Part shown: positions 28,611-44,300 of the stretch, one piece after another
How the letters are laid out: every line of letters starts with the position of its first letter
Numbering within the stretch: position 1 is the stretch's first letter
NCBI GenBank assembly: GCA_963815215.1
Contig: CAWFFU010000012.1
Span: forward strand, 34,177-98,176
Direction of reading: 5' to 3'
DNA from: an uncultured Trueperaceae bacterium
Lineage (GTDB): Bacteria > Deinococcota > Deinococci > Deinococcales > Trueperaceae
Length of the DNA stretch: 64,000 bases
Translations under genes and position numbers: made by a program
The notes under the pieces: generated by a model
Database searches by the model: none
What the model saw: the letters and a program-made list of their open reading frames with translations, nothing else
Told to the model about the DNA's origin: nothing

Positions 28611-28617
28611 CGGCGGC

Positions 28618-30132
28618 ATGACGAGCGCCTGGGAGTTGGCCCGCGAGGTGCGCGCAGGCAGGCGAAGCGCGGCAGGCGTGGTCGAGAACGCTCTGAGACG
28701 TGCCGAGGCGGCGGCGCCTCTGAACGCGCTGCTGACCGTCGCCGCCGACCGCGCCCGCGAGCGTGCGCGGTCGGTCGACGCCACGGTGGCGGCGGGCGAC
28801 GATCCGGGGCCGCTGGCGGGCGTCCCGCTGGTGGTGAAGGACAACCTGTGCCTGGAAGGGGTGCGCACCACTGCGGGCTCGCGGAGCCTGGAGGGGTTCG
28901 TACCGCCATACAGCGCGACCGCGGTGGAGCGGCTCGAGCGGGCCGGTGCGATCGTCATCGCCAAGGCCAACCTGGACGAGTTCGGGATGGGCTCGAGCAA
29001 CGAGAACTCGGCCTTCGGCCCGGTGCGCAACCCGTGGGATCCGGAGCGCGTACCCGGCGGCTCATCGGGCGGCTCGGCGGCCGCCGTCGCTGCAGGGGTC
29101 GTACCGCTGGCGCTCGGCACCGACACCGGCGGCTCGGTGCGTCTTCCCGCCGCATTCTGCGGTGTGCTGGGCGTCAAGCCCACCTACGGCCGGGTCTCCC
29201 GTTACGGGCTCATCGCCTACGCCAGCTCGCTCGATCACATCGGCGTGTTGAGCCGCAGCAGCCGCGACGCGGCGTTGGCGCTGGCGGTCATGGCGGGCGT
29301 CGATGCCCGCGACGGTACCAGTCTGGAGGCCGACACGGACGCGTTGCGTGCCGTGGCGGGCCTGGCCGCGGATGGGCAGTCCTCCGCCGCGCCGGTGGCG
29401 GCCGACGGCGGAGGCGCCGGCGACCTGCGGGGCGTGCGGGTGGCGGTGGTGCGGGAGCTGTCCGGCGCGGGCAACGCTTCCGGTGTCCTGCAGGGCCTGG
29501 AGCGTACGGTCGCGGCGTTACGCGCGCTCGGCGCCGAGGTGGTCGAGGCGAGTGTGCCGAGCGTCGAACACGCCGTGGCCGCGTACTACCTGGTGGCCAC
29601 GGCCGAGGCGAGCAGCAACCTCGCCCGCTACGACGGCATGATCTATAGCACGCGCGAGGGCGAGGATTTCGAGGGCCAGGAGGCCGTCATGCGGCGCTCG
29701 CGCGGCCTCACCCTCGGCCGCGAGGTGCGCCGGCGCGTGCTGATGGGCAGCTTCGCGCTGTCGGCCGGCTACTACGATGCCTACTACGGTAAGGCCCTCA
29801 AGGTGCGCCGCGTCATCGCCGACGACCTGGCGCGCGCCTTCGAGGGCGCCGATCTGCTGCTCACGCCGACCGCGCCGAGCGCCGCCTACCGGTTGGGCGA
29901 GAAGGTCGACGATCCGCTGGCGATGTACCTGGGCGACGTCTGCACCTGCCTGGCGAACCTCTCCGGCCTGCCGGCCGTCAGCGTACCTGCCGGACGCACC
30001 GAGGAGGGCTTGCCGACCGGCGTGCAGCTGATGGCTCCCGCGCTGCAGGAGGCGCTCCTGCTGCGTGTGAGCGCCGCGCTCGAGGCGCGCGCGGGCGACG
30101 CCTTCGCGCCGCTGGCGCCGCGCGCCGCCTGA
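28618..30132 (+). CDS. gatA: Asp-tRNA(Asn)/Glu-tRNA(Gln) amidotransferase subunit A
   Basis: Amidase signature ...GGSSGGSAAAVAAG...ALGTDTGGSVRLPAAFCG. The start is set at MTSAWELA. Confidence 0.95.
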   Translation: MTSAWELAREVRAGRRSAAGVVENALRRAEAAAPLNALLTVAADRARERARSVDATVAAGDDPGPLAGVPLVVKDNLCLEGVRTTAGSRSLEGFVPPYSATAVERLERAGAIVIAKANLDEFGMGSSNENSAFGPVRNPWDPERVPGGSSGGSAAAVAAGVVPLALGTDTGGSVRLPAAFCGVLGVKPTYGRVSRYGLIAYASSLDHIGVLSRSSRDAALALAVMAGVDARDGTSLEADTDALRAVAGLAADGQSSAAPVAADGGGAGDLRGVRVAVVRELSGAGNASGVLQGLERTVAALRALGAEVVEASVPSVEHAVAAYYLVATAEASSNLARYDGMIYSTREGEDFEGQEAVMRRSRGLTLGREVRRRVLMGSFALSAGYYDAYYGKALKVRRVIADDLARAFEGADLLLTPTAPSAAYRLGEKVDDPLAMYLGDVCTCLANLSGLPAVSVPAGRTEEGLPTGVQLMAPALQEALLLRVSAALEARAGDAFAPLAPRAA

Positions 30133-30152: not shown

Positions 30153-31310
30153 TCAGGCCTCGAACAGCTCCCTCGGGAAGTCGGTCAGCACCTCGCAGCC
30201 GTCCTCGGTCACGCGGACGGTCTCGCTGCACCCCACGCCGCCCTTGCCCGGGATCTGGACCCACGGCAGCAGGTGGAAGGTCATGTTGTGTTGCAGCGGT
30301 CGCCCCTCGCCGGGCTTCATGCTGAGGATCTGCCCCTCGCCCCAGTCGGGGGGCACCGCGATGCCGATGGAGTAGGCGGTGCGGGACGCCTGGTTGTCGC
30401 CGAAGCCGGCGTCGGCGATGAGGGTGCGGCACACGCGGTCGACCTCGCCGGCCGGCACGCCCGGACGGATGGCGTGCGTAGCGGCCTCGACGGCTTGCAC
30501 CACCACCTCGAAGGCGCGCTTCAGCTCCGGGTCGGCGTGCCCCACCACCACGGTCCGCATCATCGCGGCGTGGTAGCGATTGCGGCAGCCGCCGACCTCC
30601 AGGAATACGCTGTCGTGATCCTGGATGGTGCGCCCCTTCCAGGTGGCGTGGCCGATGGCGCCGCGCTCGCCGGAGGCGATGAAGGGCACGATCGACGGCC
30701 AGTGGCTGCCTCCGCGGATGAGCGCGGCCATCAGCTCGGCCGCGACCTCGTCCTCGGTGCGGCCGCTCGCCACGGCGTTCACGCCCGCCCGCATGGCGAC
30801 GGCGGCGGCGGCCGCGGCGTGCCGGATCTGCTCGACCTCCACGTCGGACTTGACCAGTCGCAGCCGCTCGACGAGCCCCGAGACGTCCACGAAGGTGGCG
30901 GCGGGAAGCGCGCCGAGCAAGCGCCGCTGCTGCGAGGCCGTGAAGAACCAGCAGTCCTGTTCGTAGCCCACTCGCGCGTTCGCCAGACCGCTCTCGATCA
31001 GGCGTGCGGCCAGCGTGGCCATGTTGTCGTCGCTGTCGAAGTAGCTGTAGTTGAGTTCGAGCCAGGTTCCGTCCTCGATCCCGCTCGTCTCCAACAGGCG
31101 CGAGAAGGTGAAGGGCTCGCCCCGGAGCGGCACCACCAGCGCTTGGAACCAGTAGTGGCCGGGCGAGTCGAAGCCGGTGAGGTAGGTGATGTTCTCCGGC
31201 GTGGTGGTCAATACGGCGTCGAGCTCCTGCACCGCCATCACGCCGCGCAGGGCGGCCAGCCGTCGCCGGTACTCCTGCATGGGAAAGACGAGGTCGTCGC
31301 GCTGACGCAT
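30153..31310 (-). CDS. M24-family (creatinase/prolidase fold) hydrolase, candidate ectoine hydrolase DoeA/EutD-like
   Basis: 385 aa with a creatinase-like N-domain plus pita-bread domain. The canonical M24 Asp-Asp metal ligands appear replaced (VFLEVGG...RYHAAMMRT). It is divergent from the GntR/Ehu/Eut-like operon. Confidence 0.7.
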   Translation of the reverse strand: MRQRDDLVFPMQEYRRRLAALRGVMAVQELDAVLTTTPENITYLTGFDSPGHYWFQALVVPLRGEPFTFSRLLETSGIEDGTWLELNYSYFDSDDNMATLAARLIESGLANARVGYEQDCWFFTASQQRRLLGALPAATFVDVSGLVERLRLVKSDVEVEQIRHAAAAAAVAMRAGVNAVASGRTEDEVAAELMAALIRGGSHWPSIVPFIASGERGAIGHATWKGRTIQDHDSVFLEVGGCRNRYHAAMMRTVVVGHADPELKRAFEVVVQAVEAATHAIRPGVPAGEVDRVCRTLIADAGFGDNQASRTAYSIGIAVPPDWGEGQILSMKPGEGRPLQHNMTFHLLPWVQIPGKGGVGCSETVRVTEDGCEVLTDFPRELFEA

Positions 31311-31340
31311 CCATCGGTCCCTTCCGCCCGCGGCCCGAGG

Positions 31341-31370
31341 TTGACAACCTCTCGGCGGGGCGCGTACACT
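31341..31370 (+). promoter_or_regulatory. sigma-70-type promoter (TTGACA, 18 nt, TACACT) for the GntR-led operon
   Basis: Exact -35 TTGACA at 31341-31346 and -10 TACACT at 31365-31370. Confidence 0.6.
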
Positions 31371-31383
31371 CTCGATGTCTACA

Positions 31384-31397
31384 ACTTGTATACAAGT
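31384..31397. promoter_or_regulatory. perfect 14-bp palindrome ACTTGTATACAAGT, candidate GntR-family operator
   Basis: It lies 14 nt downstream of the -10 and fits the GntR/FadR-type operator pattern (GT-Nx-AC core). A second half-site-like GTCTAC sits at 31377-31382. Confidence 0.55.
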
Positions 31398-31503
31398 GCT
31401 CTGTCACCCGCATTCTAGGTCTCTTGTTCCCTGCGGGTCAACCATCATCGGGGCAAGCGGCCACCCGCCCCGGTCCTCGCTGAGGGAAGGCATTCGCAAG
31501 ACT

Positions 31504-32190
31504 ATGCATCCACGCGAAACCGTCGAGCGCCCTCGCGGCGTCGTCATCATCTACCGCGAGCTGCGCGACCGGATCTGCCTGCTGCATTACCCACCGGGAG
31601 CGATGCTGAGCGAGAACGCGCTGGCGGAGGAGTTCGGCGTGAGCCGCACGCCCATCCGGCAGGCGCTGCAACGCCTGGAGTTCGAGGGTCTGGTGGTGAG
31701 TCGGCACGGGGTGGGCACCATGGTCACCACCGTCGACCTGCGGTACCTGCGGGAGGTCTACGCCCTGCGCCTGAAGCTGATCGACCTGATCGGTGAGATC
31801 CCTCCGGCACGCATCACCCACGGCGACCTCGACATCCTGGCGGAGCTGGCGGCCGAGGCGCGCGAGCTGCGGGGGAAGCGCGGGCCGCAGGCTCTGGCGC
31901 GCGTCTACTACCGCTTCAACGAGGAGCTCTCACGCGCCACCGGCAACCAGCCGCTGCGGGAGATCGCCGACCGGCTGTTCTGGCAGACGGCGCGGGTGTG
32001 GCTCCAACTGCTGCCGGAGATGACCTGGGAGAACGAGGTGGACATCATCGTGGACGAGATCGAGAGCGTGCTTCAGGCGCTCAGGCGCGAGGACATGCAG
32101 GGTGTGGCGGCGGTCCGCCGCAAGCACATGGTGCTCTGTCTGGGTCGCGTCAACAGCTATCTGGAAGGTCCTATCTTGGCCCTGCCGTGA
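31504..32190 (+). CDS. GntR-family transcriptional regulator (FadR/FCD-type C-terminal domain)
   Basis: wHTH ...LSENALAEEFGVSRTPIRQALQRLEFEGLV... and a helical C-domain. The start is set at MHPRETVE. Confidence 0.85.
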   Translation: MHPRETVERPRGVVIIYRELRDRICLLHYPPGAMLSENALAEEFGVSRTPIRQALQRLEFEGLVVSRHGVGTMVTTVDLRYLREVYALRLKLIDLIGEIPPARITHGDLDILAELAAEARELRGKRGPQALARVYYRFNEELSRATGNQPLREIADRLFWQTARVWLQLLPEMTWENEVDIIVDEIESVLQALRREDMQGVAAVRRKHMVLCLGRVNSYLEGPILALP

Positions 32191-32235
32191 GGCGGGCCGA
32201 ACCGACGGCAACAGAGTTCGACTGGGAGGTCAAGG

Positions 32236-33450
32236 ATGACGAAGCGGCGTGAACCGGCGCTGGAAACGCTCGCCGTGTGGGCGGGCGAGGATCGACCCAC
32301 CATGCAGAGGGCGACGCAGGTGCCCGTGGTGCACAGCGTGTCCTTCGGCTACGACGATCTGGACGAATGGCGCGACGTCGCGCTCGGCAGGCGCGAGGGC
32401 CACATCTACGGCCGCAACACCAACCCCACGGTGCAGGCGTTCGAGGAGAAGGTGCGCCAACTCGAGGGAGGCGAAGCGGCGACGAGCTTCGCCACCGGCA
32501 TGGCGGCGATCAGCAACACCCTGTTCACGCTGCTGGCTCCCGGCCGGCGGGTGGTGTCGGTGAAGGACACCTACGGCGGCACCAACAAGATCTTCACCGA
32601 GTTCCTGCCGCGCTTCGGCGTCGAGGTGCAGCTCTGCGACACCGCCGACGTCGACGCCATCGAGGCCGAGGTGGCGAGGGGCTGCGACGTGCTCTACCTG
32701 GAGACCCCGACCAACCCCACCTGCAAGATCATGGACATCCGGCGGCTCGCCGACGCCGCCCGGCGCGTGGGCGCCACGGTGGTGGTCGACAACACCTTCG
32801 CCACCCCCATCAACCAGAACCCGCTCGCGCTCGGCGCGGACCTGGTCATTCACAGCGCGACCAAGTACCTGGGAGGTCATGCCGACGCGCTCGGCGGCGC
32901 CCTGGTGGGGTCGAAGGAGCTGGTGCACGACGTGTACCACTACCGCGAGATCAACGGCGCCACGCTCCACCCGGAGGCCGCCTACCTGCTTTTGCGCGGC
33001 ATGAAGACGCTCGGCCTGCGCATCGCTCGCCAGAACGCCAGCGCCCTGGCCGTCGCACGGCACCTCTCCGACCATCCCGCCGTCACGGCGGTGTTCTATC
33101 CGGGCCTGGAGAGCCACCCCAACCACGACGTGGCCGAGCGCCAGATGCGGGGCTACGGCGGCATGCTGTCGTTCCAGCTCGAGGGCGGCTTCGAGGCCGT
33201 CAAGATCTTCCTGCCGCGCCTGCGTTTCGCGCATCGGGCGGCCAACCTGGGGACCGTGGAGACCGTGGTGGCGCCTCCGGCGACCGGCAGCCACGTCGAG
33301 TTGACGGCCGAGGAGCGTGCCGCCATGGGTATCCCCGAGAGCCTGGTGCGCTACTCGGTGGGCATCGAGGACGTCCACGATCTCATCGACGACCTGGATC
33401 AGGCGCTGGCCCATACCGTCGAGCGGATCGGTGCAGGGGCGGCCGGATGA
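32236..33450 (+). CDS. Cys/Met-metabolism PLP-dependent enzyme (cystathionine gamma-synthase/lyase, O-acylhomoserine sulfhydrylase family)
   Basis: 404 aa. ...IYGRNTNPT..., VVVDNTFATP, HSATKYLGGH (PLP lysine) and a C-terminal ...VRYSVGIED. Confidence 0.85.
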   Translation: MTKRREPALETLAVWAGEDRPTMQRATQVPVVHSVSFGYDDLDEWRDVALGRREGHIYGRNTNPTVQAFEEKVRQLEGGEAATSFATGMAAISNTLFTLLAPGRRVVSVKDTYGGTNKIFTEFLPRFGVEVQLCDTADVDAIEAEVARGCDVLYLETPTNPTCKIMDIRRLADAARRVGATVVVDNTFATPINQNPLALGADLVIHSATKYLGGHADALGGALVGSKELVHDVYHYREINGATLHPEAAYLLLRGMKTLGLRIARQNASALAVARHLSDHPAVTAVFYPGLESHPNHDVAERQMRGYGGMLSFQLEGGFEAVKIFLPRLRFAHRAANLGTVETVVAPPATGSHVELTAEERAAMGIPESLVRYSVGIEDVHDLIDDLDQALAHTVERIGAGAAG

Positions 33451-34478
33451 CCGTCACCCGTCTGGCCCTCATCGGTTTCGGTACCGTCGGGCAGGGGTTC
33501 GCGCAGATCCTGGCCGAGCGCGGTGAGGCGCTGGCCGAGCGCCACGGGCTCGAGTTGAGCATCACCGCGGTCAGCGACTTCAAGCGCGGCAGCGTCTACC
33601 GGGCGAAGGGCTTCGACCCCCGAGAGCTGCTGGACGCCGCCGACGCGCTCGAGGCGCTCGACGCCGACGCCAAGGGCTGGGACGCCATGACCACCATCCG
33701 GGAGTCGGGTGCCGACGTCGTCGCCGAGCTCAGCTTCACCGACCTGAAGACCGGCGAGCCGGCTCTGACCCATGTGCGCGAGGCGCTGACGCGCGGCATG
33801 GACGTGGTGACCACCAACAAGGGGCCCATCGCCCTGCGCTTCGCCGAGCTGCGCCGCCTCGCGGCCGAGCACGGCGCCGGCATCGGCGTGGAGGGCACGG
33901 TGATGAGCGGGACGCCCACGCTGGCGCTGGGCGCGGGCCTGCTGGCGGGCGCCGGCGTCAGCCGCATCCAGGGCATCCTGAACGGGACCACCAACTTCAT
34001 CCTCACGCGCATGGAGGCCGGACTCGACTTCGCCGCCGCGCTGGCCGAGGCGCAACGGCTGGGCTACGCCGAGGCCGATCCCAGCGGCGATGTCGATGGT
34101 GTCGACGCCGCCGGGAAGGTGGTGATCCTGGCCAACCTGGTCATGGACGCGCCCCTGGCGATGGACGACGTCACGCGCCAGGGGATCGGCGACATCACGC
34201 CGGCCGACATCGCCGCCGCCGCCGCTGCGGGTGAGCGCTGGAAGCTGCTCGGCAGCGTGGAGCGCGCGCCCGACGGTAGCGTGCGTGCCAGCGTGGGACC
34301 GCAGCGCGTGCCGCTGTCGCACCCGCTGGCGGGCATCGGGGGACCGACCAACGCCTGCACCTTCACCACCGACCTGCTGGACGACGTCACCATCGTCGGT
34401 CCCGGAGCGGGCCGCCTCGCCACGGGCTACGCGCTCGTCGAGGACCTGATCGCGCTGCGGAGCGGCGGGAGGCGCTGA
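33447..34478 (+). CDS. homoserine dehydrogenase-like oxidoreductase (no ACT domain)
   Basis: LIGFGTVGQG, VVTTNKGP, ILNGTTNFILTRM and GYAEADPSGDVDGVDAAGKVVILA. ATGA overlap with the upstream gene. Confidence 0.8.
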   Translation: MTVTRLALIGFGTVGQGFAQILAERGEALAERHGLELSITAVSDFKRGSVYRAKGFDPRELLDAADALEALDADAKGWDAMTTIRESGADVVAELSFTDLKTGEPALTHVREALTRGMDVVTTNKGPIALRFAELRRLAAEHGAGIGVEGTVMSGTPTLALGAGLLAGAGVSRIQGILNGTTNFILTRMEAGLDFAAALAEAQRLGYAEADPSGDVDGVDAAGKVVILANLVMDAPLAMDDVTRQGIGDITPADIAAAAAAGERWKLLGSVERAPDGSVRASVGPQRVPLSHPLAGIGGPTNACTFTTDLLDDVTIVGPGAGRLATGYALVEDLIALRSGGRR

Positions 34479-34481
34479 GCC

Positions 34482-35897
34482 ATGGAGATGTTGCTGGCAG
34501 GGGAATGGGTCACGCGCGACGCCGTGATCGAGGTGACGGATCCCGACGACGGTAGGGTCATCGACACCGTCCCCCAGGGCACCACCGATGACATGGAGCG
34601 AGCCCTGGACGCCGCCGAACGCGGCGCTGCGCTCGCCCGGGCGCTGCCGACGCACCGGCGCATGGCGGTGCTCGCGGAGGCGGCGCAGCGTCTCGAGCGC
34701 GACCAGGAGTCGTTCGCGCGACAGATCGCACAAGAGGGCGTCAAGACCATCCGGGAGGCGCGCAAGGAGGCGAGCCGGGCGGCGGACACGTTGCGCCTCA
34801 GCGCCGAGGAGGCCCGGCGCGTGCACGGCGAGACGCTGGCCTTCGATCAGCGCCCCGGCAGCGAGGGGCGCTTCGGCTACTACGTTCGCGAGCCGGTGGG
34901 CATCGTCGCGGCCATCACCCCCTTCAACGACCCGCTCAATCTGGTCGCCCACAAGGTGGGGCCCGCCATCGCCGCCGGCAATGCCGTCGTGCTCAAACCC
35001 GACTCCAAGACACCGTTGAGCGCCCTGAAGCTCGGCGCGCTGCTGCTCGACAGCGGCCTGCCGCCCGACCTGCTGCAGATCATCACGGGCCGCGGCAGCG
35101 TCATCGGGGATGTGCTGGTGCGTGACCCGAGGGTACGGGTGGTGTCGTTCACGGGGGGCCGCGACGCCGGCGAGGCGATCGTTCGCGCGGGCGGCCTCAA
35201 GCGCTACAGCATGGAGCTCGGTAGCAACGCGCCCACCATCGTCATGGACGATGCCGATCTCGACGCTGCTGTGCCGGCCATCGTGTCCGGCGCCTTCTGG
35301 GCCGCCGGGCAGAACTGCCTGCACGTGCAGCGCCTGCTGGTGCAACAGGGCGTGTACGACGAGGTCCGCGACCGCATGGTGGCGGGCGCGGAGGCGGTCC
35401 GTAGCGGCCCGAAGCTCGACGAGACCACCGACATGGGGCCCATCATCGACGCGGCCAACGTCGTGCGAATCGCCGCCATGGTACAAGAGGTCCGGACCGC
35501 TGGAGCCCGCCTCCTCACGGGAGGTGGCCATGAAGGCACGCACTTCGAGCCAACGCTGCTCGAGGGTGTCCCGACCGATAGCCGGCTCGCCCGCGACGAG
35601 GTGTACGGCCCGGTCACGATCCTCCAACGCGTCCACGACCTGAACGAGGCTGTCGCCGTCGCGAACGATGTCGACTACGGCCTTCAGGCGGCCGTCTTCA
35701 CCCGTGACCTCGACACCGCGCATCGCGCGGTCTCCGCCCTCCACTACGGAGGCGTGATGGTCAACGACAGCACCGATTACCGCATCGACGCCATGCCATT
35801 CGGCGGCGTCAAGGGTTCGGGGCTCGGACGTGAAGGCGTCGAGTTCGCGATCCACGAGATGACCGAGCTCAAGCTCGCGAGCTTCGTCCTGCATTGA
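34482..35897 (+). CDS. NAD(P)-dependent aldehyde dehydrogenase (DoeC/Ssd-like candidate)
   Basis: 471 aa. ITPFNDPLN, catalytic ELGSNAP and GQNCLHVQR, and [14 protein letters not shown]. It starts 3 nt after the previous stop. Confidence 0.9.
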
Positions 35898-35928
35898 CGG
35901 AGCCGGCGGAACCCATGAGGAGGGACCT

Positions 35929-36768
35929 GTGGCCGCGACCACCGAACGCGAGGCAACCCAACACGACGAGGTCGCCCGGGCCGAGGCCCTGGAGCGTGCG
36001 GAGCCGATGGTGCGCTTCGAGAAGGTGCGCAAGTCCTTCGGCTCGCTCACGGTCCTGCGCGATCTCGACTTCACGGTGCGGGCGGGGGAGAAGGTCGCGA
36101 TCATCGGTCCGAGCGGCTCAGGCAAGACCACCATCCTGCGCGTGTTGATGACGCTGGTGAAGCCCAACAGCGGCAAGGTCTTCGTCGGCGGCGATCCGTT
36201 GTGGCACCGCGAGGTGGACGGCAAGGTCCTCCCCGCGCCCCAGAGCCAGCTCAGGAAGGTGCGCAATCGCATCGGGATGGTGTTCCAGCACTTCAACCTG
36301 TTCCCCAACATGAGCGTGCTGCGCAACGTCACCGAGGCGCCCATCCACGTCAAGGGGGTGGCGCGTGCCGAGGCGGAGGCGCGCGCCCGGGAGCTGCTCG
36401 ATATGGTGGGTCTGGGCGACAAGTTCAAGGCCTTCCCCTCGCAGCTCTCCGGCGGGCAGAAGCAGCGCGTCGCCATCGCGCGCGCACTGGCGATGGACCC
36501 CGACCTGATGCTGTTCGACGAGGTCACCTCCGCCCTCGACCCCGAGCTCGTCGGCGAGGTACTGGGCATCCTGCGGCAGCTCGCGCACGAGACCAACATG
36601 ACCATGCTGATCGTGACCCACGAGATGGGCTTCGCCCGCGACGTCTCCGACCGCGTTGTGTTCTTCGATGCCGGTCAGGTGGCCGAGGAGGGCCCGCCCT
36701 CCAAGATCTTCAGCGAGCCCGAGAATCCCAGGACGCAGAGCTTCCTCAAAGCAGTCCTGGAGCACTGA
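35929..36768 (+). CDS. polar amino-acid-type ABC transporter ATP-binding protein (EhuA-like)
   Basis: Walker [10 protein letters not shown], signature LSGGQKQR and Walker B MLFDE. The insertion ...[33 protein letters not shown] resembles EhuA (from memory). GTG start after GAGGAGGGA. Confidence 0.85.
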
Positions 36769-37023
36769 GCAGCAGGACCGGCGGCTGCGAGGGCGCGGCC
36801 GCGACGCACACGGGCCGGCACCGTCCCGGCCGCGGAAGGATGTGAACCTATGTCCGAAGGGCCGCCGTCATGGGCCGAGGCCCCGCGCCGGAGCGCGGGG
36901 CGCGGCCGACCGACCGGCACCGGTCTGGCGCCTCCCTGGCGCCGACCGGTTACGCCACCAGGGCGCGCGCATGTGGCCACGTGCCCGCCCGAAGACTCGA
37001 TGTTCGAAACACAAGGAGGAACC

Positions 37024-37887
37024 ATGGCCAACCGTACGCTCAAGACCCTCACGCTGACTCTATTCGCCGTTGTGGTCGGTGCTCTGGCCTTCGCCCAGGG
37101 CGACCTCTTGCAGCAGGTCCAACAGCGGGGCTACATCCGCGTCGCGACCGCCAACGAGATCCCCTACGGCTACATCGACCAGAACGGTGACGCCAAGGGC
37201 ATCGCCCCCGACGTCGCCACCGCCGTCCTGAAGAGGATGGGGATCACCGACGTCCAGTGGATCGTCACCGAGTTCGGCTCGCTGATCCCCGGGCTCAAGG
37301 CCAACCGCTTCGACATGGCGGCCGCCAGCCAGGCCATCCTGCCGGCCCGGTGCCAGCAGGTGATCTACTCCAAGCCGAACTCCAGTTACGGTGAAGGGCT
37401 CATGGTCCCCGCGGGCAACCCGAAGAGCATCCACGGGTACGACGCCTTCGTGAACGACTCCAGCCTCAAGCTCGGCATCGTGTCGGGTGCCGACGAGCTC
37501 GATTTCGCCCACGCCATGGGGATCTCGGACAGCCAGATCGTGATGATCCCGGCCAACACGGACGCCCTGTCGGCAGTCACGACCGGTCGCATCGACGCCT
37601 ACGCCGGTACCGGCCTGACGGTCGATCGCCTGGCGAAGAAGTCTGACAAGGTCGAGCCGGTGGACCCGTTCAACGACCCCGTCGTCAACGGCAAGCCGGT
37701 CCGGAGCTGGGGCGGTTTCACCTTCAACAGCAACAACACCGCCTTCCGCGACGCCTACAACAAGGAGCTCGCGGCCTTCCAGCAGACCCCCGAGTACGCC
37801 AAGATCCTGACGAGCTACGGTCTGTCCAACACCGACGTTCAGCAGGCCCTGGCGAAGACCACCCAGGAGCTGTGCAGCGGACAGTAG
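37024..37887 (+). CDS. periplasmic substrate-binding protein (EhuB-like, family-3 SBP)
   Basis: Signal peptide MANRTLKTLTLTLFAVVVGALAFA. ...TEFGSLIPGLKANRFDM... and ...NDPVVNGKPVRSWGGFTF... resemble ectoine-binding EhuB (from memory). RBS AAGGAGGA. Confidence 0.8.
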   Translation: MANRTLKTLTLTLFAVVVGALAFAQGDLLQQVQQRGYIRVATANEIPYGYIDQNGDAKGIAPDVATAVLKRMGITDVQWIVTEFGSLIPGLKANRFDMAAASQAILPARCQQVIYSKPNSSYGEGLMVPAGNPKSIHGYDAFVNDSSLKLGIVSGADELDFAHAMGISDSQIVMIPANTDALSAVTTGRIDAYAGTGLTVDRLAKKSDKVEPVDPFNDPVVNGKPVRSWGGFTFNSNNTAFRDAYNKELAAFQQTPEYAKILTSYGLSNTDVQQALAKTTQELCSGQ

Positions 37888-38008
37888 CTTCTGAACGGGC
37901 GGGCGGGTGCCTCGAGGCACCCGCCCGCCTCCTTATCTTCTTTCGGGCCGCGGCGCGGGAGCGAGGCTCCTGGCGCACGCACCACCTCTGGAAGGGGGGA
38001 GGACGGGC

Positions 38009-38677
38009 ATGGACCTGAGCACCCTGCTTCCGCCGTTGCTCAAAGGCGCGCGGCTCACGGCCGAGCTGGCCCTGATGTCGACGGTTCTCGGAGGCGTGAT
38101 GGCCTTCGTGGCCGGCATCGGGAAGCTCTCGCGCTTCTGGCCGGCGCGCATCCTATCGATCGTGTACGTGGAGGTCTTCCGCGGCACCAGTCTTCTGGTG
38201 CAGATGTTCTGGCTCTATTACGCGTTACCGCTGCTGGGCGTCAGCCTCAGCGCGACCCTGGCGGGCGTCCTGGCGCTCGGCCTCAACATCGGCGCCTACG
38301 GTGCCGAGGTCGTACGCGGCGCCATCCTATCGGTGCCCACGGGCCAGTACGAGGCGTCGCTGGCCCTCAACTTCACGCGCCGCCACACGCTCTGGAACGT
38401 GGTGCTGCCGCAGGCGGTGGTCGAGATGATGCCCCCGTTCGGCAACCTGGTCGTGCAGAACCTCAAGGACACCGCGTTGGTCTCGTTGATCACCCTCAGT
38501 GACCTGACCTTCCGCGCCCAGAGCCTGCGCAACCTGACGCTGGAGACGGTGCCGATCTACAGCGCCACGCTGGTGCTCTACTTCGCCATGGCGCTGGTGT
38601 TGATGGTCGGCATGCGCTGGATCGAGCGCGCCGTCGCGCATCGCGTCGGCGTGACCGCGGCGAGGTCACGCTCATGA
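38009..38677 (+). CDS. ABC transporter permease (EhuC-like)
   Basis: 222 aa. HisM/GlnP-type permease with an EAA-like loop (...YEASLALNFTRRHTLWNVVLPQA...). Confidence 0.8.
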   Translation: MDLSTLLPPLLKGARLTAELALMSTVLGGVMAFVAGIGKLSRFWPARILSIVYVEVFRGTSLLVQMFWLYYALPLLGVSLSATLAGVLALGLNIGAYGAEVVRGAILSVPTGQYEASLALNFTRRHTLWNVVLPQAVVEMMPPFGNLVVQNLKDTALVSLITLSDLTFRAQSLRNLTLETVPIYSATLVLYFAMALVLMVGMRWIERAVAHRVGVTAARSRS

Positions 38678-39366
38678 TGTTCGGCATCCACTGGGACCTC
38701 AGCTCCAACGGAGCGTTCGCAGTGTCCATCCTCCCCATCCTGCTGCGCGGCATGATCATCACCATCGAGGCCACCGCGCTCGGCTTCCTGGTGGCGCTGG
38801 TCCTCGGGCTGGTCTTCGCGCTGTTGCGCGCCGTTCCCATGAAGTTGGTGGCCTGGCCGACGGCCTTCGTCATCGAGTTCGTGCGCGACACGCCGCTGCT
38901 GGTGCAGCTCTACTTCCTGTACTTCGTGCTGCCGAACTTCGGCATCGTACTGCCGGCCTTCCTCACGGGCGCCCTCGCGCTCGGCGTGCAGTACAGCGCC
39001 TACACCTCGGAGGTGTATCGCGCCGGTCTCGAGGCGGTGCCCCGCGGCCAGTGGGAGGCGTCGTTGGCGCTCAACATGCCCACCTGGCTGGTGTACCGCG
39101 ACGTGGTCGTGCCCCAGGCCGTACCGAGGGTGATCCCCGCGCTCGGCAACTATCTCGTGTCGATGCTCAAGGACACCCCGATCCTTTCGGCGGTGACGGT
39201 GCTGGAGATGCTGAACCTGGCCACCATCATCGGCGACCGCACCTTCCGCTACCTGGTTCCGCTGTCGATGGTGGGTGGGCTGTTCCTGGTGTTGACGCTG
39301 TTCAGCTCCTGGCTGGTGCGGGTGCTGGAGCGTCGCATGCCCAACGACGGCATCCCGCTCCGGTAG
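38674..39366 (+). CDS. ABC transporter permease (EhuD-like)
   Basis: 230 aa with EAA-like loop ...WEASLALNMPTWLVYRDVVVPQA.... ATGA overlap with the previous permease gene. Confidence 0.8.
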   Translation: MMFGIHWDLSSNGAFAVSILPILLRGMIITIEATALGFLVALVLGLVFALLRAVPMKLVAWPTAFVIEFVRDTPLLVQLYFLYFVLPNFGIVLPAFLTGALALGVQYSAYTSEVYRAGLEAVPRGQWEASLALNMPTWLVYRDVVVPQAVPRVIPALGNYLVSMLKDTPILSAVTVLEMLNLATIIGDRTFRYLVPLSMVGGLFLVLTLFSSWLVRVLERRMPNDGIPLR

Positions 39367-39375
39367 GCTGATCGG

Positions 39376-40395
39376 GTGGACAGGCCCACGTTACGGGACG
39401 TCTACGCTGCCGCGCAGGCCTTGCGAGGCGTCGCGCGGCGCACGCCGCTGGTCGAGAGCACGGCGTTGACGGCCGTCTCCGGCGGCCCCGCGCACCTGAA
39501 GCTGGAGAATCTGCAGGCCACCGGCGCGTTCAAGATGCGCGGGGCGACCAACGCCCTGGCGGCGCTCGACGATCGCGCACGGGCGCGCGGCGTCGTGGCG
39601 GTCTCCACCGGCAACCACGGGCGCGCGGTGGCCACAGCGGCGCGCCGGCTCGGGGTGAACGCCACCGTGTGCGTGTCCGACCGCGTGCCTGCGGGGAAGA
39701 TCGCCGCGCTTCGGGCCACCGGCTGCGAGCTCGTGATCGCCGGCGCCAGTCAGGACGACGCCGAGGTCCAGGCCCGGAAGCTCGTCGAAGAGCGCGGGCT
39801 CACCCTGATCCATCCTTTCGACGATCCGACGGTGATCGCCGGCCAGGGCACGATCGGGCTGGAGATCCTCGAGGAGCTCGCGGGCGTTCGGCGGGTGGTC
39901 GTTCCGCTGTCAGGTGGTGGGCTGATCGCCGGGGTGGCGCTGGCCGTCAAGTCGGCCGATCCCGCGATACGCGTTGTCGGGGTCTCGATGGAGCGGGGGG
40001 CCGCCATGGCGCGCAGCCTACGCGCCGGGCGGCCGGTTCCCACGCCCGAGGAGCCGACGCTGGCCGACAGCTTGCAGGGCGGCATCGGCGATGCCAACCG
40101 TTACACGCTGGAGATGGTCGCCGAGTTCGTCGACGACGTGGTGCTGGTGGGCGAGGAGGCGATCGCCCGCGCCATGCGTTTCGCGTTCGTGCAGGAGCGG
40201 CAGGTGCTGGAGGGGGGCGGGGCAGTGGGCATCGCGGCGCTCCTCGAGGGGGCGCTGCCCAGGATGGCGGGGCCGACGGCGGTGGTGTGCTCGGGTGGCA
40301 ACATCGATCCGGAGCGATTCCTCGACGTCATCGGGAGCGTCGGGTCCGCGGACGATGAGGACCCGATGGCATTGCACGGAGAGGAGCCCTCATGA
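39376..40395 (+). CDS. fold-type II PLP enzyme, threonine/serine dehydratase-like (EutB-like candidate)
   Basis: PLP-lysine motif ATGAFKMRGA, STGNHGRA and a glycine-rich loop PLSGGGLIAG. GTG start. Confidence 0.8.
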   Translation: MDRPTLRDVYAAAQALRGVARRTPLVESTALTAVSGGPAHLKLENLQATGAFKMRGATNALAALDDRARARGVVAVSTGNHGRAVATAARRLGVNATVCVSDRVPAGKIAALRATGCELVIAGASQDDAEVQARKLVEERGLTLIHPFDDPTVIAGQGTIGLEILEELAGVRRVVVPLSGGGLIAGVALAVKSADPAIRVVGVSMERGAAMARSLRAGRPVPTPEEPTLADSLQGGIGDANRYTLEMVAEFVDDVVLVGEEAIARAMRFAFVQERQVLEGGGAVGIAALLEGALPRMAGPTAVVCSGGNIDPERFLDVIGSVGSADDEDPMALHGEEPS

Positions 40396-41372
40396 GCCAG
40401 CCCACCGATCCCCAGATCCTCTACGAGCACGAGCTCCGCGCCCTGGTCGACCTCGATGGCGAAGGTCTCGATGCCGTGCGCGAGGCGTTCCGTCGGCTCT
40501 CGGGCGGCGACGCGGTGCAGCCTCCGGTGATGCGCATCGACGTGCCGGAACACCACGGCGAGGTCGACGTCAAAGGTGCCTACATCCGTGGGCTCGACAG
40601 CTTCGCTGTGAAGATGTCCTCGGGCTTCTTCGACAACCCCCGGCGCGGCCTGCCGACGGCCAGCGGCCTGATGGTGCTGATCGACGCCGAGACCGGCGTG
40701 CCGCGGGCCGTGCTGCTCGATAACGGCTACCTCACCGACGTGCGCACGGCGCTGGCGGGCGCCGCCGCTGCCGACGCGCTCGCCCGGGCGGCGGTCGACA
40801 CCGTGGCGGTGCTTGGGGCCGGCGCGCAGGCGCGTTGGCAGCTCCGCGCGCTCATGCTGGTCCGCTGGCCGCGCCGCGCGCTGGTGTGGGCGCGACGGCG
40901 GGCCGAGGCCGACCGGCTGGCTACGGAGATGACCGAGCAGCTCGGCATACCGGTGGCGGCGGTCGCCGAGGCCGAACGGGCAGTGCGCGAGAGCGACCTC
41001 GTCGTGACCACCACGCCGGCCACGCAGCCCATCGTGCAGGCGGGGTGGCTGCACCCCGGGTTGCACGTCACCGCGATGGGGTCGGACGCCGAGCACAAGC
41101 AGGAGCTCGAGCCTGCCGTACTCCGCCGGGCCGACGTCCTGGTGAGCGACCGCCGCAGCCAGGGCCTGACCATCGGCGAATTGCGCTCGGCCCACGAAGC
41201 GGGCGTCGACGTGAGCGAGGAGCGCGTCGCCGAGCTCGGCGAGGTGCTCGCCGGCGCGCGGCCGGGGCGGACCGCAGAGGACCAGATCACCGTCTGCGAC
41301 CTGACCGGAACCGGTGTGCAGGACACCGCCATCGCGCGGCTGGCGGCGGCGCGGGCGGCGACCTCGGGCTGA
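40392..41372 (+). CDS. ornithine cyclodeaminase / mu-crystallin family protein (EutC-like candidate)
   Basis: 326 aa. ...VKGAYIRGLDSFAVKM..., Rossmann motif VAVLGAGAQARWQ and ...VTAMGSDAEHKQEL.... ATGA overlap with the upstream gene. Confidence 0.8.
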   Translation: MSQPTDPQILYEHELRALVDLDGEGLDAVREAFRRLSGGDAVQPPVMRIDVPEHHGEVDVKGAYIRGLDSFAVKMSSGFFDNPRRGLPTASGLMVLIDAETGVPRAVLLDNGYLTDVRTALAGAAAADALARAAVDTVAVLGAGAQARWQLRALMLVRWPRRALVWARRRAEADRLATEMTEQLGIPVAAVAEAERAVRESDLVVTTTPATQPIVQAGWLHPGLHVTAMGSDAEHKQELEPAVLRRADVLVSDRRSQGLTIGELRSAHEAGVDVSEERVAELGEVLAGARPGRTAEDQITVCDLTGTGVQDTAIARLAAARAATSG

Positions 41373-41389: not shown

Positions 41390-44300
41390 TCACGGCCCCG
41401 AGGCGCGCACGGCCAGGTGGCCCTGTGCGAGCTGTTTCCCGTCGGCCAACAGCGTCGCGGTGAAGGTTCCGGCCTTCGCCGGCGCCAGCATCGTACCCGT
41501 GAACGCGCCCGGGCCCGTCCGCGTGAGGGCCGTGGAGGTGCCCTGGAGCCTGACGTCGACATGCGCTGCCTTCACCAGCACGTGGGCTTCCACGCTGACG
41601 CGCTCGCCCGGGGTGGCGAAGCCGGGCGTGAGGGTGAGGGTGGCCAAGGGTCCCGAAGTGACGATCACCGTCTCGTCCTGCGTGACGCTGTGCTTGGCGC
41701 TGCGTGCCGTGATCTGGAGCGTCTCGGCGCCGTCCGAGGCGTGACGGCCGTGGCGATGAGGCAGGGGCGGCAGCGTGACCGTGCCCTGGAAGCGTCCACC
41801 ACCGAGCGGGCTCAGGGCGACGCTCGGACCGTTCGCCCAGCGGGCGTTGACGCCGGACGCGCCGGGTGCCGTCGCCGTGATCGTGAGCTGCGCGCCAGAG
41901 GGCGCCGTGGAGGGTGACACCCGGGCGTGCAATGCGAGCGACCCGGCGGTGAGCGTGGTCGTCACGACGGTCTGGGGCGGGGTGACGCCGAGCTCGACCG
42001 ACGGTGCGCTGTTGGCAGGGCCGAGGTCGACGCTCACGGAGCGCAGGTTCGGGTGGTAGCCCGCGGGGAGGCTGCGCTGCACCAGCGCGAGCAGGTAGTG
42101 GCCGGGGGCGAGCCCGTTGAAGACGAAGTCTCCGCTGGCATCGGTATCGGTGGAGCGCTGCTCGCCGTTGGGCCCGGAGAGCTGTACCGTCACGAAGGTG
42201 AGGCCCCTGGACTGTGCAGTCGGGTGCCGGCTGCCCGGCGCGGCGCTGTACACCTGACCGGACACGCTGAAGCTGCGCTTCACGACGATCGTGGTGGTGG
42301 TCGTGCGGTGAAGCCGCACGGTGACGCGGGGCGAGCCGACGACGGTGAGATCGAGTGGCAGGTTCGCGAGCTGTAGTGCAGTGGTGCCCAGTGGCAGCCG
42401 GAGCGTGAAGTCACCATGCTGATCGGTGCGCGCCTGGCGGTTGGCCGCGGCCGCCACGACCAGCACCCCCGGCAGGCCCTGAGCGCCGGAGGCGGTGTGC
42501 AGGACGACGCGGCCGTGCACGGTGCCGAGGCGGAGGCCGCCGAAGGCCGCCACCACCGACGGCGGGACCTGGAGCCCCGACAGCACGTCCGCGCTGAGCC
42601 CCACGCGGTACGTGACGGCATGGTTGGGGTCGACGCCTACCGTTCCCTGCAGGGCGATCGCGTGCGTGAGCTGGTAGCTGAGCTGGGCGTTGCCGAACAG
42701 GCGTCCGGTTGCCGTCTGGTAGTCCAGCGTCACTCCGGTGGCGACGGGACCGAGGTGAAGGCCGCCGTGTGCGTCCACCACAGGCTCCACGGGTGTGGAG
42801 ATCGGCGCCGAGGTGCCGGCGCCGATGCTGAAGCCGTTCCCGACATAGGTCTCGTCGAGCGACGCGTTCCACCCCCCCGCTTCGGTGACTCCTACCCGGG
42901 TCACCCAGGGGAGCGGGGCGACCACGGTGAACAGGCTTCCCGAGAGTTGGACGTGTCCCTGTTCGAGCTGGCCCCGGATCGAGGTCCGGACGCTGCCCAG
43001 GTGCCCGGGTATCAGGTATACGACCGAGAAGTGGCCGGAGCCGGCGCGCAGGTCGCCGGTCGCGGTGTAGCGAGCATGCTGGCTCGTGACGACGGCGGGG
43101 CCGAGCGTCTCGTACACCGACAGGGTGCCGTTCGACCCCTTCGGAGTCACGGTGGCGCTCGCGCCGAAGCCGATGGGACGGATCGCCTGGCTGTAGAGAT
43201 CGAGCGTCGCTTGCCACGGTTCCGACCCGCGGGGCGTGTAGACGCCGCCCACATCGCCCAGCAGCCCGATCCCCGACCCCTGCAGGGTGGCACCCACCAG
43301 GGGTCCGACAAGGTAGCCGCTGGGCGAGTTCTGGCCCGTGACGCCCACGTGTCCGGTGACCTGGAGCCAGGGGGTCAAGGGAGCGACGTACGAGACGGAG
43401 AGCGCGTCGGTCGACGGGTTCGTCCACGCGTGGTCGTAGGCGACGTTGAAGGCTCCGACGGTGTAGCCGACGCCGGTCCTGAGCGCCCCGGAGGCCGAGG
43501 TCGCCAAGGTCCCCGAAACGCCGCGATACCTGCCCGTCAGGTCCTGGCCTCCGAGGGGCTGATAACGGTACGAGACGCTCCAATCGTTGCCCAGCAGGCC
43601 GACGTGGCCTCCGACGCCGCCGCTGTAGGAGACCCCGCTGTCCGTGCGGACGAAGTCGGACAGACTGCCGCGGATGCCGGCGCTCGCCCGGGCCTCGAGG
43701 CCGGTGGTGCCGTAGGACACGGAGAAGGGAAGGTTCAGGTCGAGGAGCGGAGCCGAGGGGTCCGCGCCGGGGAAGGGCAGGACGTCGTAGTCGTAGACGA
43801 GTCGCTGGTCGTAGGAACTTCCTATCGCGGCGGCGGTCACGATGGCGACGCGATGCCCGAAGGCGCGTGGGGTCACCTGGAGGCGCGCCGTCCCTGAGGT
43901 TCCGGGAGCCAGGTGAAGGTGCCCCGGTGCGACACTCGCCGAGTCCTCGCCGCTGACCGACAGCGCGAAGGTCTCAGGCGCATTGCCCTGGTTGACCAGG
44001 GTCAGGGTCGTTTCGAACGACGTGCCGGCCACCGCGGCCACCGGCGGTGGAGAGCCGTGCAGCGTGGCCTGCAGGACCGTAAGCACGACGATCGTGACGG
44101 TGGTGCTGGCCGTCACGGTGCCCGCATGGTTCAGGGTCACCTGGACGCGATGCGGGCCCGCCCGCGCGGAGGGGTCGACCAGGACCGTTGCCAGCAGCTG
44201 TCCGCGCTCTTGCGCGCTCGTCCCCAGCGCGGTCAGGCCGGTGGCCGGGTGGAGTTCGACCGTCCCCGGACCGTGCGTGCGAAGGGGGATCGCGACCACG

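Follow-up and report, generated by a model that had tools for sequence, protein, structure and literature searches.

How would a bacterium equipped to take up ectoine and open its ring reach aspartate if its gene cluster encodes neither the deacetylase nor the transaminase of the canonical route? This question is raised by a cluster of eleven genes at positions 30153 to 41372 of a 64,000-nucleotide stretch (here called the window) of contig CAWFFU010000012.1, from an uncultured Trueperaceae bacterium of the Deinococcota. An earlier note on this DNA had likened the cluster to known ectoine systems and had speculated that a pyridoxal phosphate (PLP)-dependent enzyme and a homoserine dehydrogenase (HSDH) stand in for the missing steps. 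On balance, we favor reading the locus as a repressor-controlled regulon for scavenging ectoine and 5-hydroxyectoine, the lower pathway of which would run via homoserine made from L-2,4-diaminobutyrate (DABA).

All catalytic steps, the inducer, and the identity of the PLP enzyme's substrate are predictions in this scheme. EhuABCD would import ectoines, and a divergently encoded, DoeA-like hydrolase of the M24 family would open the ring to yield acetyl-2,4-diaminobutyrate. EutB, acting as a dehydratase, and an EutC-like reductase would take the hydroxyl group off the hydroxyectoine-derived intermediate. The acetyl group would then be removed by a deacetylase encoded outside the cluster, which we regard as the weakest link. 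The PLP enzyme would carry out a gamma-elimination followed by water addition at the substituent on the 4-nitrogen, a chemistry known from canavanine gamma-lyase (CanGL), to give L-homoserine; its substrate would most likely be free DABA, with loss of NH3. The translationally coupled HSDH, which lacks an ACT domain, would convert homoserine to aspartate semialdehyde (ASA), and an aldehyde dehydrogenase (ALDH) would convert ASA to aspartate. One dimer of a GntR/FCD protein, bound to a palindrome, would keep the M24 gene and the ten-gene operon repressed until an intermediate of the pathway builds up.

Gene layout and conservation of the cluster

ORF and spacing analysis of the 64-kb window recovered all eleven genes at the coordinates, and with the spacing and overlaps, given in the earlier note. 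The window has a G+C content of ~70%, and the gene set was therefore defined as the ORFs with high third-position G+C (GC3). Pfam searches confirmed every gene family that had been named. Synteny of the entire cluster extends to >20 related genomic and metagenomic loci (referred to below by numbers such as L001), and the arrangement of its genes is therefore not a matter of chance. The nearest relatives of the window's PLP protein are labelled Trueperaceae or Deinococcales, and sequence of the window type was also met in soil, sediment, wetland, and salt-marsh metagenomes. The gene families, their synteny and co-occurrence, the orthology of the HSDH-ALDH pair, and the conservation of the promoter and operator region are matters of direct observation and are set out below.

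Ectoine uptake and the hydroxyectoine branch

Family membership was judged by scores with NCBIfam curated models relative to their cut-offs. The transporter genes lie on the plus strand in the order ATPase, substrate-binding protein (SBP), permease, permease, which is the order of EhuABCD, and each product passes its equivalog model: EhuA, the ABC ATPase (36007 with an ATG start, or 35929 with a GTG start, to 36768; TIGR03005, 395 versus a cut-off of 345); EhuB, the SBP (37024 to 37887; TIGR02995, 303 versus 191); EhuC, a permease (38009 to 38677, with an alternative GTG start at 37907; TIGR03004, 286 versus 197); and EhuD, a second permease (38674 to 39366, overlapping the EhuC gene; TIGR03003, 318 versus 205). 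The GTG start of ehuA would leave a gap of 31 nt to the preceding gene, and ehuB, which follows a 255-nt gap, has a strong AAGGAGG before its ATG. The best match of the SBP in the PDB is Sinorhizobium meliloti EhuB (2Q88, E 2e-41), 25 orders of magnitude ahead of the next chain (3e-16). Phe80 and Thr133 of the S. meliloti protein, which we take to be ligand contacts, align with Ala and Asp in the window protein.

Downstream of ehuD by 9 nt, the threonine-dehydratase-like PLP enzyme EutB (39376 to 40395, plus strand) passes NF005680 (427 versus 413) and falls narrowly short of the older TIGR02991 (391.5; cut-off, 413.35). The gene that overlaps eutB (40392 to 41372, plus strand) encodes an EutC-like protein of the OCD/mu-crystallin type (Pfam OCD_Mu_crystall), which passes the "cyclodeaminase" model NF006141 (459 versus 408) and scores 420 with TIGR02992, under its cut-off of 472. 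The EutC-like protein is probably an imine reductase of the hydroxyectoine branch.

Because EhuA through EhuD exceed their equivalogs, the EutB and cyclodeaminase models are passed, and the M24 protein is DoeA-like, the locus is, as far as can be judged from sequence, an ectoine/hydroxyectoine uptake and catabolism cluster. The look-alikes of Ehu, Eut, and Doe proteins listed in the earlier note are borne out by the same scores and by an M24 protein whose nearest relative is DoeA. We consider it quite improbable that the cluster handles some other import (a different cyclic amidine or a solute derived from DABA, or else a basic amino acid or an opine) and resembles Ehu, Eut, and Doe proteins at the family level only. 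Such a reading could draw on the M24 scores, which lie under both ectoine-hydrolase cut-offs, on the narrow misses with TIGR02991 and TIGR02992, and on the Ala and Asp at the two presumed contact positions of EhuB, but it has to contend with four Ehu equivalogs exceeded by wide margins and with the lead of EhuB among PDB matches. Moreover, members of the same PLP family lie beside genes named doeA, doeB, and ehuABCD by PGAP and beside M24 genes that pass the EutD equivalog, and the metagenomes in which the organism occurs come from salt marsh, sediment, and soil, settings in which one would expect ectoines.

The M24 hydrolase

The divergent gene (30153 to 31310, minus strand) encodes a protein with Creatinase_N and Peptidase_M24 domains. 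It scores best with NF038259 (ectoine_DoeA_2; 409 bits, under the cut-off of 575) and reaches 216 bits with TIGR02993 (cut-off, 613). The best PDB match is DoeA (6twk, E 3e-56), followed by prolidase (8e-33) and creatinase (1e-16); the protein is thus nearer to DoeA than to either of the two groups with which it might have been confused. These scores place it in a divergent ectoine-hydrolase lineage outside the classic Eut clusters, and it is only ~30% identical to Klebsiella DoeA. We assume that the DoeA_2 model was seeded on the Methylotuvimicrobium alcaliphilum protein.

The earlier note had singled out the absence of the usual Asp-Asp metal ligands. The alignment confirms the absence but not its oddity. 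At the five canonical M24 metal-ligand columns, which we set by what we take to be the residue numbers of Pyrococcus furiosus prolidase, the window protein has E238/A249/Y313/L348/S362, and Halomonas elongata DoeA has E/P/Y/M/T. Because H. elongata DoeA likewise replaces these columns, the missing Asp-Asp pair is a DoeA-family trait that is normal for ectoine hydrolases and no anomaly. The window protein is thus DoeA-like and neither a prolidase nor a creatinase, and we predict that it opens the ring of ectoine and hydroxyectoine. Its orthologues in L092 and L103 to L106 (59 to 65% identity) adjoin DoeB-type genes; no eutE/doeB deacetylase gene lies beside the window's M24 gene or anywhere else in the 64 kb.

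The PLP enzyme and its genomic associations

The PLP enzyme (32236 to 33450, plus strand, 45 nt after the gntR gene) belongs to the Cys/Met family (PF01053, 436 bits) and, within it, to the PRK08249 clade (NF006097, 687 versus a cut-off of 600), whose members are 62 to 77% identical across phyla. Its nearest solved relatives are methionine gamma-lyases (MGLs); with the MGL model TIGR01328 it scores 390, under the cut-off of 550. Six catalytic residues (Tyr58, Arg60, Tyr113, Asp185, Lys210, and Arg372), which comprise the Schiff-base Lys, the Asp at N1, the stacking Tyr, the carboxylate Arg, and the Tyr and Arg of the neighboring subunit, are invariant in 84 family members. All 84 sequences have Gly at the column of Cys115 of Citrobacter freundii MGL, and 83 have Asn at position 337, where C. 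freundii MGL, CGL, and the rhizobial CanGL orthologue have Ser.

To place the enzyme in context, 80 species-level loci were fetched around its homologues, and the window proteins were mapped onto them; counts out of 52 refer to the PLP-anchored loci that are flanked on each side by 6 kb or more. A DoeA-like M24 gene is found in 32 of the 52, and Ehu, EutB, or EutC is found in 17 to 20. HSDH and ALDH occur in 24, all but one of which (23/24) also have M24. The M24-linked PLP proteins are spread over the family tree. In two metagenome-assembled genomes (MAGs), one unclassified (L046, 726 bits) and one from Acidimicrobiia (L065, 630 bits), the M24 protein encoded beside the PLP gene passes the EutD equivalog. 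Plasmid pBMV_1 of Priestia megaterium ATCC 14581 (L087) has the order pucR, eutB, pdxS, M24, cyclodeaminase, PLP, M20, HSDH, ALDH, which recurs in halophilic Bacilli with pdxS as a variable member, and Klebsiella IncF-type plasmids carry an enuR-like gene, doeA, doeB, and the PLP gene opposite ehuABCD (PGAP names). The association with M24, Ehu, and Eut genes is kept in Deinococcota, Bacillota, Actinomycetota, and Pseudomonadota plasmids and also in loci labelled Chloroflexota and Candidatus Obscuribacterales. By this company, the PLP enzyme appears to belong to ectoine catabolism.

One outcome that, by the earlier note, would undo its proposal was that the genes for the PLP enzyme and HSDH belong to ordinary methionine/threonine biosynthesis and are expressed on their own. 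Both genes are in fact operonic and co-occur across phyla with a DoeA-like M24 gene. That they are biosynthetic genes standing in the cluster by chance is scarcely credible and already largely refuted. NCBIfam does name the two proteins only generically ("cystathionine gamma-synthase family protein" and "homoserine dehydrogenase"), but DoeA-like M24, Ehu, and Eut genes accompany them across phyla, the cluster encodes no homoserine O-acyltransferase, the HSDH shares its ACT-less type with the enzymes of rhizobial loci for homoserine and canavanine catabolism, and L091 has a separate housekeeping gene of the Cys/Met family.

Several of the loci that carry this family have features of their own. 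On pBMV_1, pdxS (PLP synthase) lies between eutB and the M24 gene, which fits a high demand from two PLP enzymes; the host strain can be cultured. The ectoine island of Klebsiella is present on a K. pneumoniae plasmid (L088, NZ_CP013713.1) and in ~28 other Klebsiella/Pluralibacter plasmid records; these plasmids are of the IncFIB/IncHI1B type, and many come from clinical isolates. The island is bordered by insertion sequence (IS) elements and toxin-antitoxin genes, and a literature search gave no paper describing it. In L065, positions 186 to 5853 hold two M24 genes, one weakly DoeA_2-like and the other passing the EutD equivalog, with an ArgE-type M20 gene between them (NF005710, 437 bits; cut-off, 412). 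This cluster adjoins Ehu, GntR, PLP, and EutC genes.

A predicted path from homoserine to aspartate

The HSDH gene (33447 to 34478, plus strand) overlaps the PLP gene by an ATGA. Its 343-amino-acid product has NAD_binding_3 and Homoserine_dh domains only, as expected from the earlier description of an ACT-less enzyme, and passes NF004912 (401 versus 373). The ALDH gene follows after 3 nt (34482 to 35897, plus strand). Its product scores 504 bits with Pfam Aldedh and passes no NCBIfam equivalog: the best of these, lactaldehyde dehydrogenase, gives 481 (cut-off, 650), and the SSADH-type model TIGR01780 gives 352 (cut-off, 646), so that the protein does not classify as Ssd/SSADH.

The window HSDH is 47% identical to that of the pRL8 homoserine region of Rhizobium johnstonii 3841 and 49% identical to that of a rhizobial canavanine locus (L090), and the window ALDH is 50% identical to the ALDHs that follow HSDH in both. 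These identities cover the full length of the proteins, and the gene order is the same; the rhizobial pairs overlap (by 4 nt in L090), and the window pair is separated by its 3 nt. L090, from Rhizobium leguminosarum, contains B3/4, ABC, PLP "aminotransferase," SMR/Gdx, HD, ALDH, dapA, and aspartase genes and matches the published canavanine cluster. In that pathway, CanGL, a PLP enzyme resembling MGL, forms homoserine by elimination of hydroxyguanidine and addition of water, and the route from canavanine through homoserine, ASA, and aspartate to fumarate has been reconstituted in vitro with an HD, ALDHs, and an aspartase from Pseudomonas (PMC9533460). The homoserine dehydrogenase RLV_0467 of Rlv UPM791, whose orthologue in strain 3841 is pRL80071 on pRL8, is assigned to a class described as biased toward the oxidation of homoserine (PMC10228743, citing Liang 2022), the first description of which came from Arthrobacter nicotinovorans.

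We therefore predict that the window HSDH works oxidatively, from homoserine to ASA, and that the ALDH converts ASA to aspartate as a functional analogue of DoeC/Ssd. Because the HSDH-ALDH pair is orthologous to rhizobial homoserine/canavanine catabolic pairs, whose Pseudomonas counterparts worked in vitro, a flow from homoserine through ASA to aspartate, as the earlier note had suggested, is well supported. The PLP enzyme belongs to a distinct clade and is encoded upstream of this known homoserine-to-aspartate module.

An improbable variant is that the PLP enzyme is a plain gamma-lyase that turns DABA (or homoserine) into 2-oxobutyrate and ammonia, with HSDH and ALDH serving as a side branch or balancing the ASA/homoserine pool. 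The closeness of the enzyme to MGLs would suit this, as would the M24-PLP clusters that have no HSDH and ALDH (Klebsiella, L046, L064/65, L075, and L093), and CanGL itself gives <5% 2-oxobutanoate (PMC9533460). Against it stand the ATGA overlap of the PLP and HSDH genes with the ALDH gene 3 nt later, the presence of HSDH and ALDH with the PLP gene in 24 of 52 loci (23 of them with M24), and the orthology of the pair to homoserine-consuming modules; clusters that have no such pair can rely on housekeeping homoserine metabolism.

Probable replacement of the transaminase

In a Pfam search of the 64 kb, none of the GC3-supported ORFs had an AstE_AspA, M20, Aminotran_3, or Asp/Glu-racemase domain, and tblastn queries from related loci (DoeB, a class-III aminotransferase, and three M20 deacylases) gave no match in the 64 kb. 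DoeB, DoeD, and EutA, which the earlier note had reported as missing, are thus absent from the window by the ORF search, and the tblastn search agrees for DoeB, M20, and aminotransferase genes. A class-III aminotransferase was found in only 1 of the ~89 PLP-anchored loci.

The most telling comparison is with L092 (ENA ERZ1029217 NODE_10), from a low-GC organism (GC, 43%). This locus shares with the window the GntR/FCD regulator (54% identity), the M24 hydrolase (60%), the ALDH (61%), and the operator core, and Ehu, EutB, and EutC are present as well. A PLP enzyme of the window type and an HSDH are both lacking; a DoeB-type deacetylase gene lies beside M24, and a class-III aminotransferase gene lies beside the ALDH gene. 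A metagenome scan with the M24 protein returned four further loci in which M24 is followed by DoeB, and DoeB is absent from every PLP-type locus that has sequence downstream of M24. On the M24 tree, DoeB-type and PLP-type loci interleave, an arrangement implying two or more switches between the types. This near mutual exclusivity, together with the module swap in L092, supports the view that the PLP enzyme replaces the class-III DABA transaminase. Of the double bypass put forward in the earlier note, the part that concerns the transaminase thus holds up; for the deacetylase, the evidence from related loci cuts both ways.

The AS-family amidase gene next to the cluster (28504 to 30132) was considered as a source of deacetylase or acetamidase activity but was discarded: its product scores 533 bits with the GatA equivalog (cut-off, 481), its strong PDB matches are all GatA (E 1e-117 to 1e-129), and its adjacency to the cluster is lost in L091 and L093. 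The "amidase" of L058 was set aside as well, being gatA next to gatB. In the window, gatA (plus strand) is convergent with the M24 gene at a distance of 20 nt and is easily confused with a pathway amidase. Together with PP2C (27527 to 28510) and RidA (27098 to 27475) genes, it is syntenic in all close relatives; gatB (15676 to 17118) lies 11 kb from gatA.

DABA or N-gamma-acetyl-DABA as the predicted substrate

We think it somewhat more likely that the PLP enzyme acts on free DABA, with the deacetylase encoded elsewhere, than that it acts on an acetylated form. As a leaving group, ammonia is much superior to acetamide, and bacteria of the Deinococcus-Thermus group have ArgE/LysK-type deacylases. 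A deacetylase gene directly adjoins the PLP gene in ~25 Bacilli, where it is of the M20, DoeB2-like type, and on Klebsiella plasmids, where it is DoeB; in Acidimicrobiia (ArgE-like M20) and the Anaerolineae locus L053 (M20), the two genes share a cluster. The active-site motifs of M24 proteins are alike in DoeB-linked and PLP-linked orthologues. Characterized DoeA/EutD enzymes yield N-alpha-acetyl-DABA (PMC7192451, PMC8739950), which cannot form an alpha-aldimine because its alpha-nitrogen is blocked.

A number of observations weigh against the pathway as we propose it. The M24 protein falls short of both NCBIfam ectoine-hydrolase cut-offs. About 40% of the well-flanked PLP family members have no ectoine genes nearby, so that the activity of the family may be a broader one. 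Literature searches gave no characterized member of the PRK08249 clade and no precedent for a DABA gamma-ammonia-lyase activity. Three further points concern the deacetylase: none of a known type is encoded in the 64 kb or within ±10 kb in the >20 loci of the same type, minimal modules of M24 and PLP enzyme in other phyla (L004, L006, L046, L067, and L093) likewise have none, and PLP and DoeB genes are perfectly anticorrelated within the M24 clade of the window, which fits a replacement of both steps better than a replacement of the transaminase alone.

These last points favor a different, tentative course of events, in which the M24 enzyme would yield N-gamma-acetyl-DABA and the PLP enzyme would eliminate acetamide and add water to give homoserine, so that deacetylase and transaminase would both be replaced. 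The absence of DoeB, M20, and ArgE-type genes from the window and its same-type loci would then be as expected, as would the minimal M24-PLP modules (with or without Ehu), the exchange of DoeB plus Aminotran_3 for PLP plus HSDH as units on one chassis, and the anticorrelation with its two or more switches on the M24 tree. With its free alpha-amine, the compound is an isostere of O-acetylhomoserine, and O-acyl-homoserines are the archetypal substrates of gamma-family enzymes. Both acetyl isomers were obtained with H. elongata DoeA, and gamma-ADABA has been reported from ectoine-grown Ruegeria pomeroyi (PMC7192451, PMC8739950).

The PLP sequences themselves offer a lead. Position 46 (codon 32371 to 32373) is R, K, or H in every deacetylase-less cluster and Y, F, L, M, or I in every deacetylase-containing cluster, a pattern that the N-gamma-acetyl route could explain. 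The signal amounts to about two independent observations, however, because it mostly follows the two main PLP clades; as a discriminator of deacetylase clusters, position 46 was rejected as confounded by phylogeny and kept as a lead only. Residues 46 and 337 are candidate specificity determinants. Differences in the M24 active site (YHA(P/A)M and others) were also tried as a means of telling DoeB-linked from PLP-linked proteins, and they do not track cluster type.

Other evidence speaks against acetamide as the leaving group. PLP proteins 62 to 73% identical to that of the window share clusters with deacetylases in four other lineages, and the M24 active-site motifs of DoeB-linked and PLP-linked proteins are indistinguishable. 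An amide nitrogen leaves very poorly, and we know of no PLP-dependent gamma-elimination that expels one. Nor does the cluster encode an acetamidase, the adjoining amidase being GatA. All told, we consider it possible but rather doubtful that the R/K46 branch of PRK08249, including the window enzyme, is an N-gamma-acetyl-DABA gamma-lyase that releases acetamide and forms homoserine, and we retain free DABA as the preferred substrate.

Regulation and noncoding elements

The 193-nt spacer between the M24 and gntR genes contains two sigma-70-like promoters that face each other (regulatory region, 31341 to 31441). The plus-strand promoter has TTGACA at 31341 and TACACT at 31370, and the minus-strand promoter has TTGACC at 31441 and TAGAAT at 31412, each with 18 nt between the boxes; the promoter scan thus gave 2 sites where 0.0 were expected. 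Between the two -10 boxes lies a perfect 14-bp palindrome, ACTTGTATACAAGT (31384 to 31397), which is unique in the window. Its core, TTGTATACAA, occurs at the same intergenic place in all related loci, including L020, L091, L092, and L093, and the intergenic alignment shows both promoters and the palindrome as five conserved islands in an otherwise variable spacer. Palindromes of the TnGT-N-ACnA type fit operators of FadR-subfamily GntR proteins, and ACTTGTATACAAGT is a candidate GntR operator.

The regulator gene (31504 to 32190, plus strand, with an alternative start at 31375) encodes a 228-amino-acid protein of the FadR subfamily that has GntR and FCD domains only. The earlier note had compared it with the GntR-type regulators of ectoine clusters. 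A GntR protein is indeed present, but by its domains it is of the FadR-type GntR/FCD kind and not a MocR-type EnuR; it lacks the aminotransferase-like PLP domain to which the GntR-type helix-turn-helix of EnuR (MocR/GabR type) is fused. The protein passes no NCBIfam equivalog. Homologues lie beside the PLP gene in L046, L064/65, L020, and L035 (42 to 57% identity), and L091 to L093 encode homologues of 52 to 54% identity. We predict that the GntR/FCD protein represses both transcription units.

The 255-nt spacer between ehuA and ehuB (36769 to 37023) is conserved in length among relatives. It contains a GC-rich hairpin of 13 bp with one bulge (36919 to 36950, plus strand), an inverted repeat that is conserved in the spacer alignment; a 66-nt segment folds at a ΔG of -38.6 kcal/mol (z = -3.0). 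A conserved Shine-Dalgarno-like block, GGAAGGA...ATG, lies upstream of and in frame with ehuB. The hairpin possibly serves RNA processing or stability, or internal regulation and differential expression of ehuB. Across the whole 64 kb there was no Rfam match at gathering thresholds and no tRNA gene, and no known riboswitch therefore accounts for the 255-nt gap. Neither the leader region nor the sequence after the EutC-like gene yielded an intrinsic-terminator-like site.

Relation to known systems

The import and upper-pathway genes are homologous to those of Ehu, Eut, and Doe systems, and the lower pathway would operate in the manner of a canavanine/homoserine module. With the canonical systems, the window shares the EhuABCD order, a DoeA/EutD-type M24 hydrolase, EutB, an EutC-like protein, a predicted final ALDH step to aspartate, and presumably substrate-inducible expression. 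It differs from them in having no EutE/DoeB, no class-III transaminase Atf/DoeD, no EutA, no AsnC/DoeX, and no MocR-type EnuR; it has instead a PLP enzyme of the gamma-family, an HSDH without an ACT domain, and a GntR/FCD regulator of the FadR type. The doeBDAC cluster of M. alcaliphilum (PMC7192451) retains the deacetylase, the transaminase, and DoeC, the first two of which the window does not have. A curated eutD/eutE set covers 363 genomes, all of Proteobacteria (PMC8739950); the window comes from Deinococcota.

The CanGL pathway of Pseudomonas canavaninivorans and Rhizobiales (Hauth et al. 2022, PMC9533460) has in common with the window an ABC importer, a PLP-dependent gamma-lyase, an ACT-less HSDH, an ALDH, and aspartate as a product. 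The window PLP enzyme is not a CanGL orthologue, being only 37% identical to the syntenic rhizobial CanGL orthologue; it is ~44% identical to methionine gamma-lyase matches on plasmids, and CanGL is no closer. The window also has no Gdx exporter, B3/4 editing protein, dapA, or aspartase (aspartate ammonia-lyase) of that pathway, and the predicted leaving group is linked through nitrogen (NH3 or acetamide) instead of through oxygen, as is the hydroxyguanidine of CanGL. The pRL8 homoserine region of R. johnstonii 3841 has the same ACT-less HSDH followed by ALDH (47% and 50% identity). Rhizobia import homoserine directly, whereas the window organism would make it inside the cell from ectoine.

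Closest in content are putative Gram-positive clusters described in 2026 as "pucR-eutBCD-atf + abgB-thrA-adh" (AEM 2026; PMC13188858), a provisional assignment for which the paper offers no mechanism and which includes no Deinococcota. These clusters share with the window a DoeA-like M24 gene, EutC, a PLP gene, HSDH (thrA), and ALDH (adh), often EhuABCD, and the absence of eutE; they have an M20 amidohydrolase gene (abgB) between PLP and HSDH, PucR, and a TIGR02993-like M24. The window has no M20 and no PucR, and it has a GntR/FCD regulator and a DoeA_2-like M24 instead. Judged by its position in the published description and in the loci compared here, the gene called "atf" corresponds to a PRK08249 gamma-family gene, 68 to 73% identical to that of the window, and not a class-III transaminase.

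The overall type of cluster had thus been noticed in Gram-positives, in an unvalidated form and without a mechanism. New here are the Deinococcota variant, with no deacetylase in the cluster and with a GntR/FCD regulator; the recognition of the gene at the "atf" position as encoding a gamma-family, lyase-type enzyme; the module swap with the canonical DoeB and transaminase on the same chassis; and the spread of the PLP family to Klebsiella plasmids and several other phyla.

Neighboring genes

Relative to L001 and L002, the window carries an insert of ~7.4 kb at 41390 to 48813, immediately downstream of the cluster. In both of those loci, eutC is followed within ~1.5 kb by rpmH, rnpA, yidD, and yidC; in the window, rpmH lies at 49074 to 49217. 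The insert encodes a 1,181-amino-acid protein with CarboxypepD_reg-like domains on the minus strand, along with two minus-strand ORFs and a 606-amino-acid plus-strand ORF that have no Pfam match. Four long ORFs of the window with high GC3 matched no Pfam family at E <= 1e-5: 14101 to 15594 (minus), 20637 to 22082 (minus), 45029 to 46779 (minus), and 46993 to 48813 (plus).

Implications for ectoine catabolism

Ectoines are among the most abundant microbial osmolytes and serve as a carbon and nitrogen currency in saline soils, in marshes, and in the sea. Only for Proteobacteria has the way in which they are catabolized been elucidated, and genome surveys detect consumers through the eutD-eutE pair. 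If the homoserine route is real, such surveys therefore miss several groups of consumers: those in Deinococcota, halophilic Bacilli, and Acidimicrobiia, those that bear clinical Klebsiella plasmids, and MAGs labelled Chloroflexota and Candidatus Obscuribacterales. Since L092 and the window represent a natural module swap on one regulatory chassis, the hypothesis is directly testable.

For the enzyme family, the scheme would add the conversion of DABA or N-gamma-acetyl-DABA to homoserine to the reactions of gamma-family PLP enzymes, would offer a way from DABA to aspartate that yields NAD(P)H and needs no transaminase, and would give a function to a highly conserved family now annotated only as "cystathionine gamma-synthase family protein." Should N-gamma-acetyl-DABA prove to be the substrate, a DoeA-like hydrolase and one PLP enzyme would form a self-sufficient, two-step path from ectoine to homoserine that needs neither deacetylase nor transaminase. 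That path would involve a new enzyme activity, with an amide nitrogen as the leaving group, and would represent a second solution to ectoine catabolism, evolutionarily interchangeable with the first, as the module swap with L092-type clusters shows.

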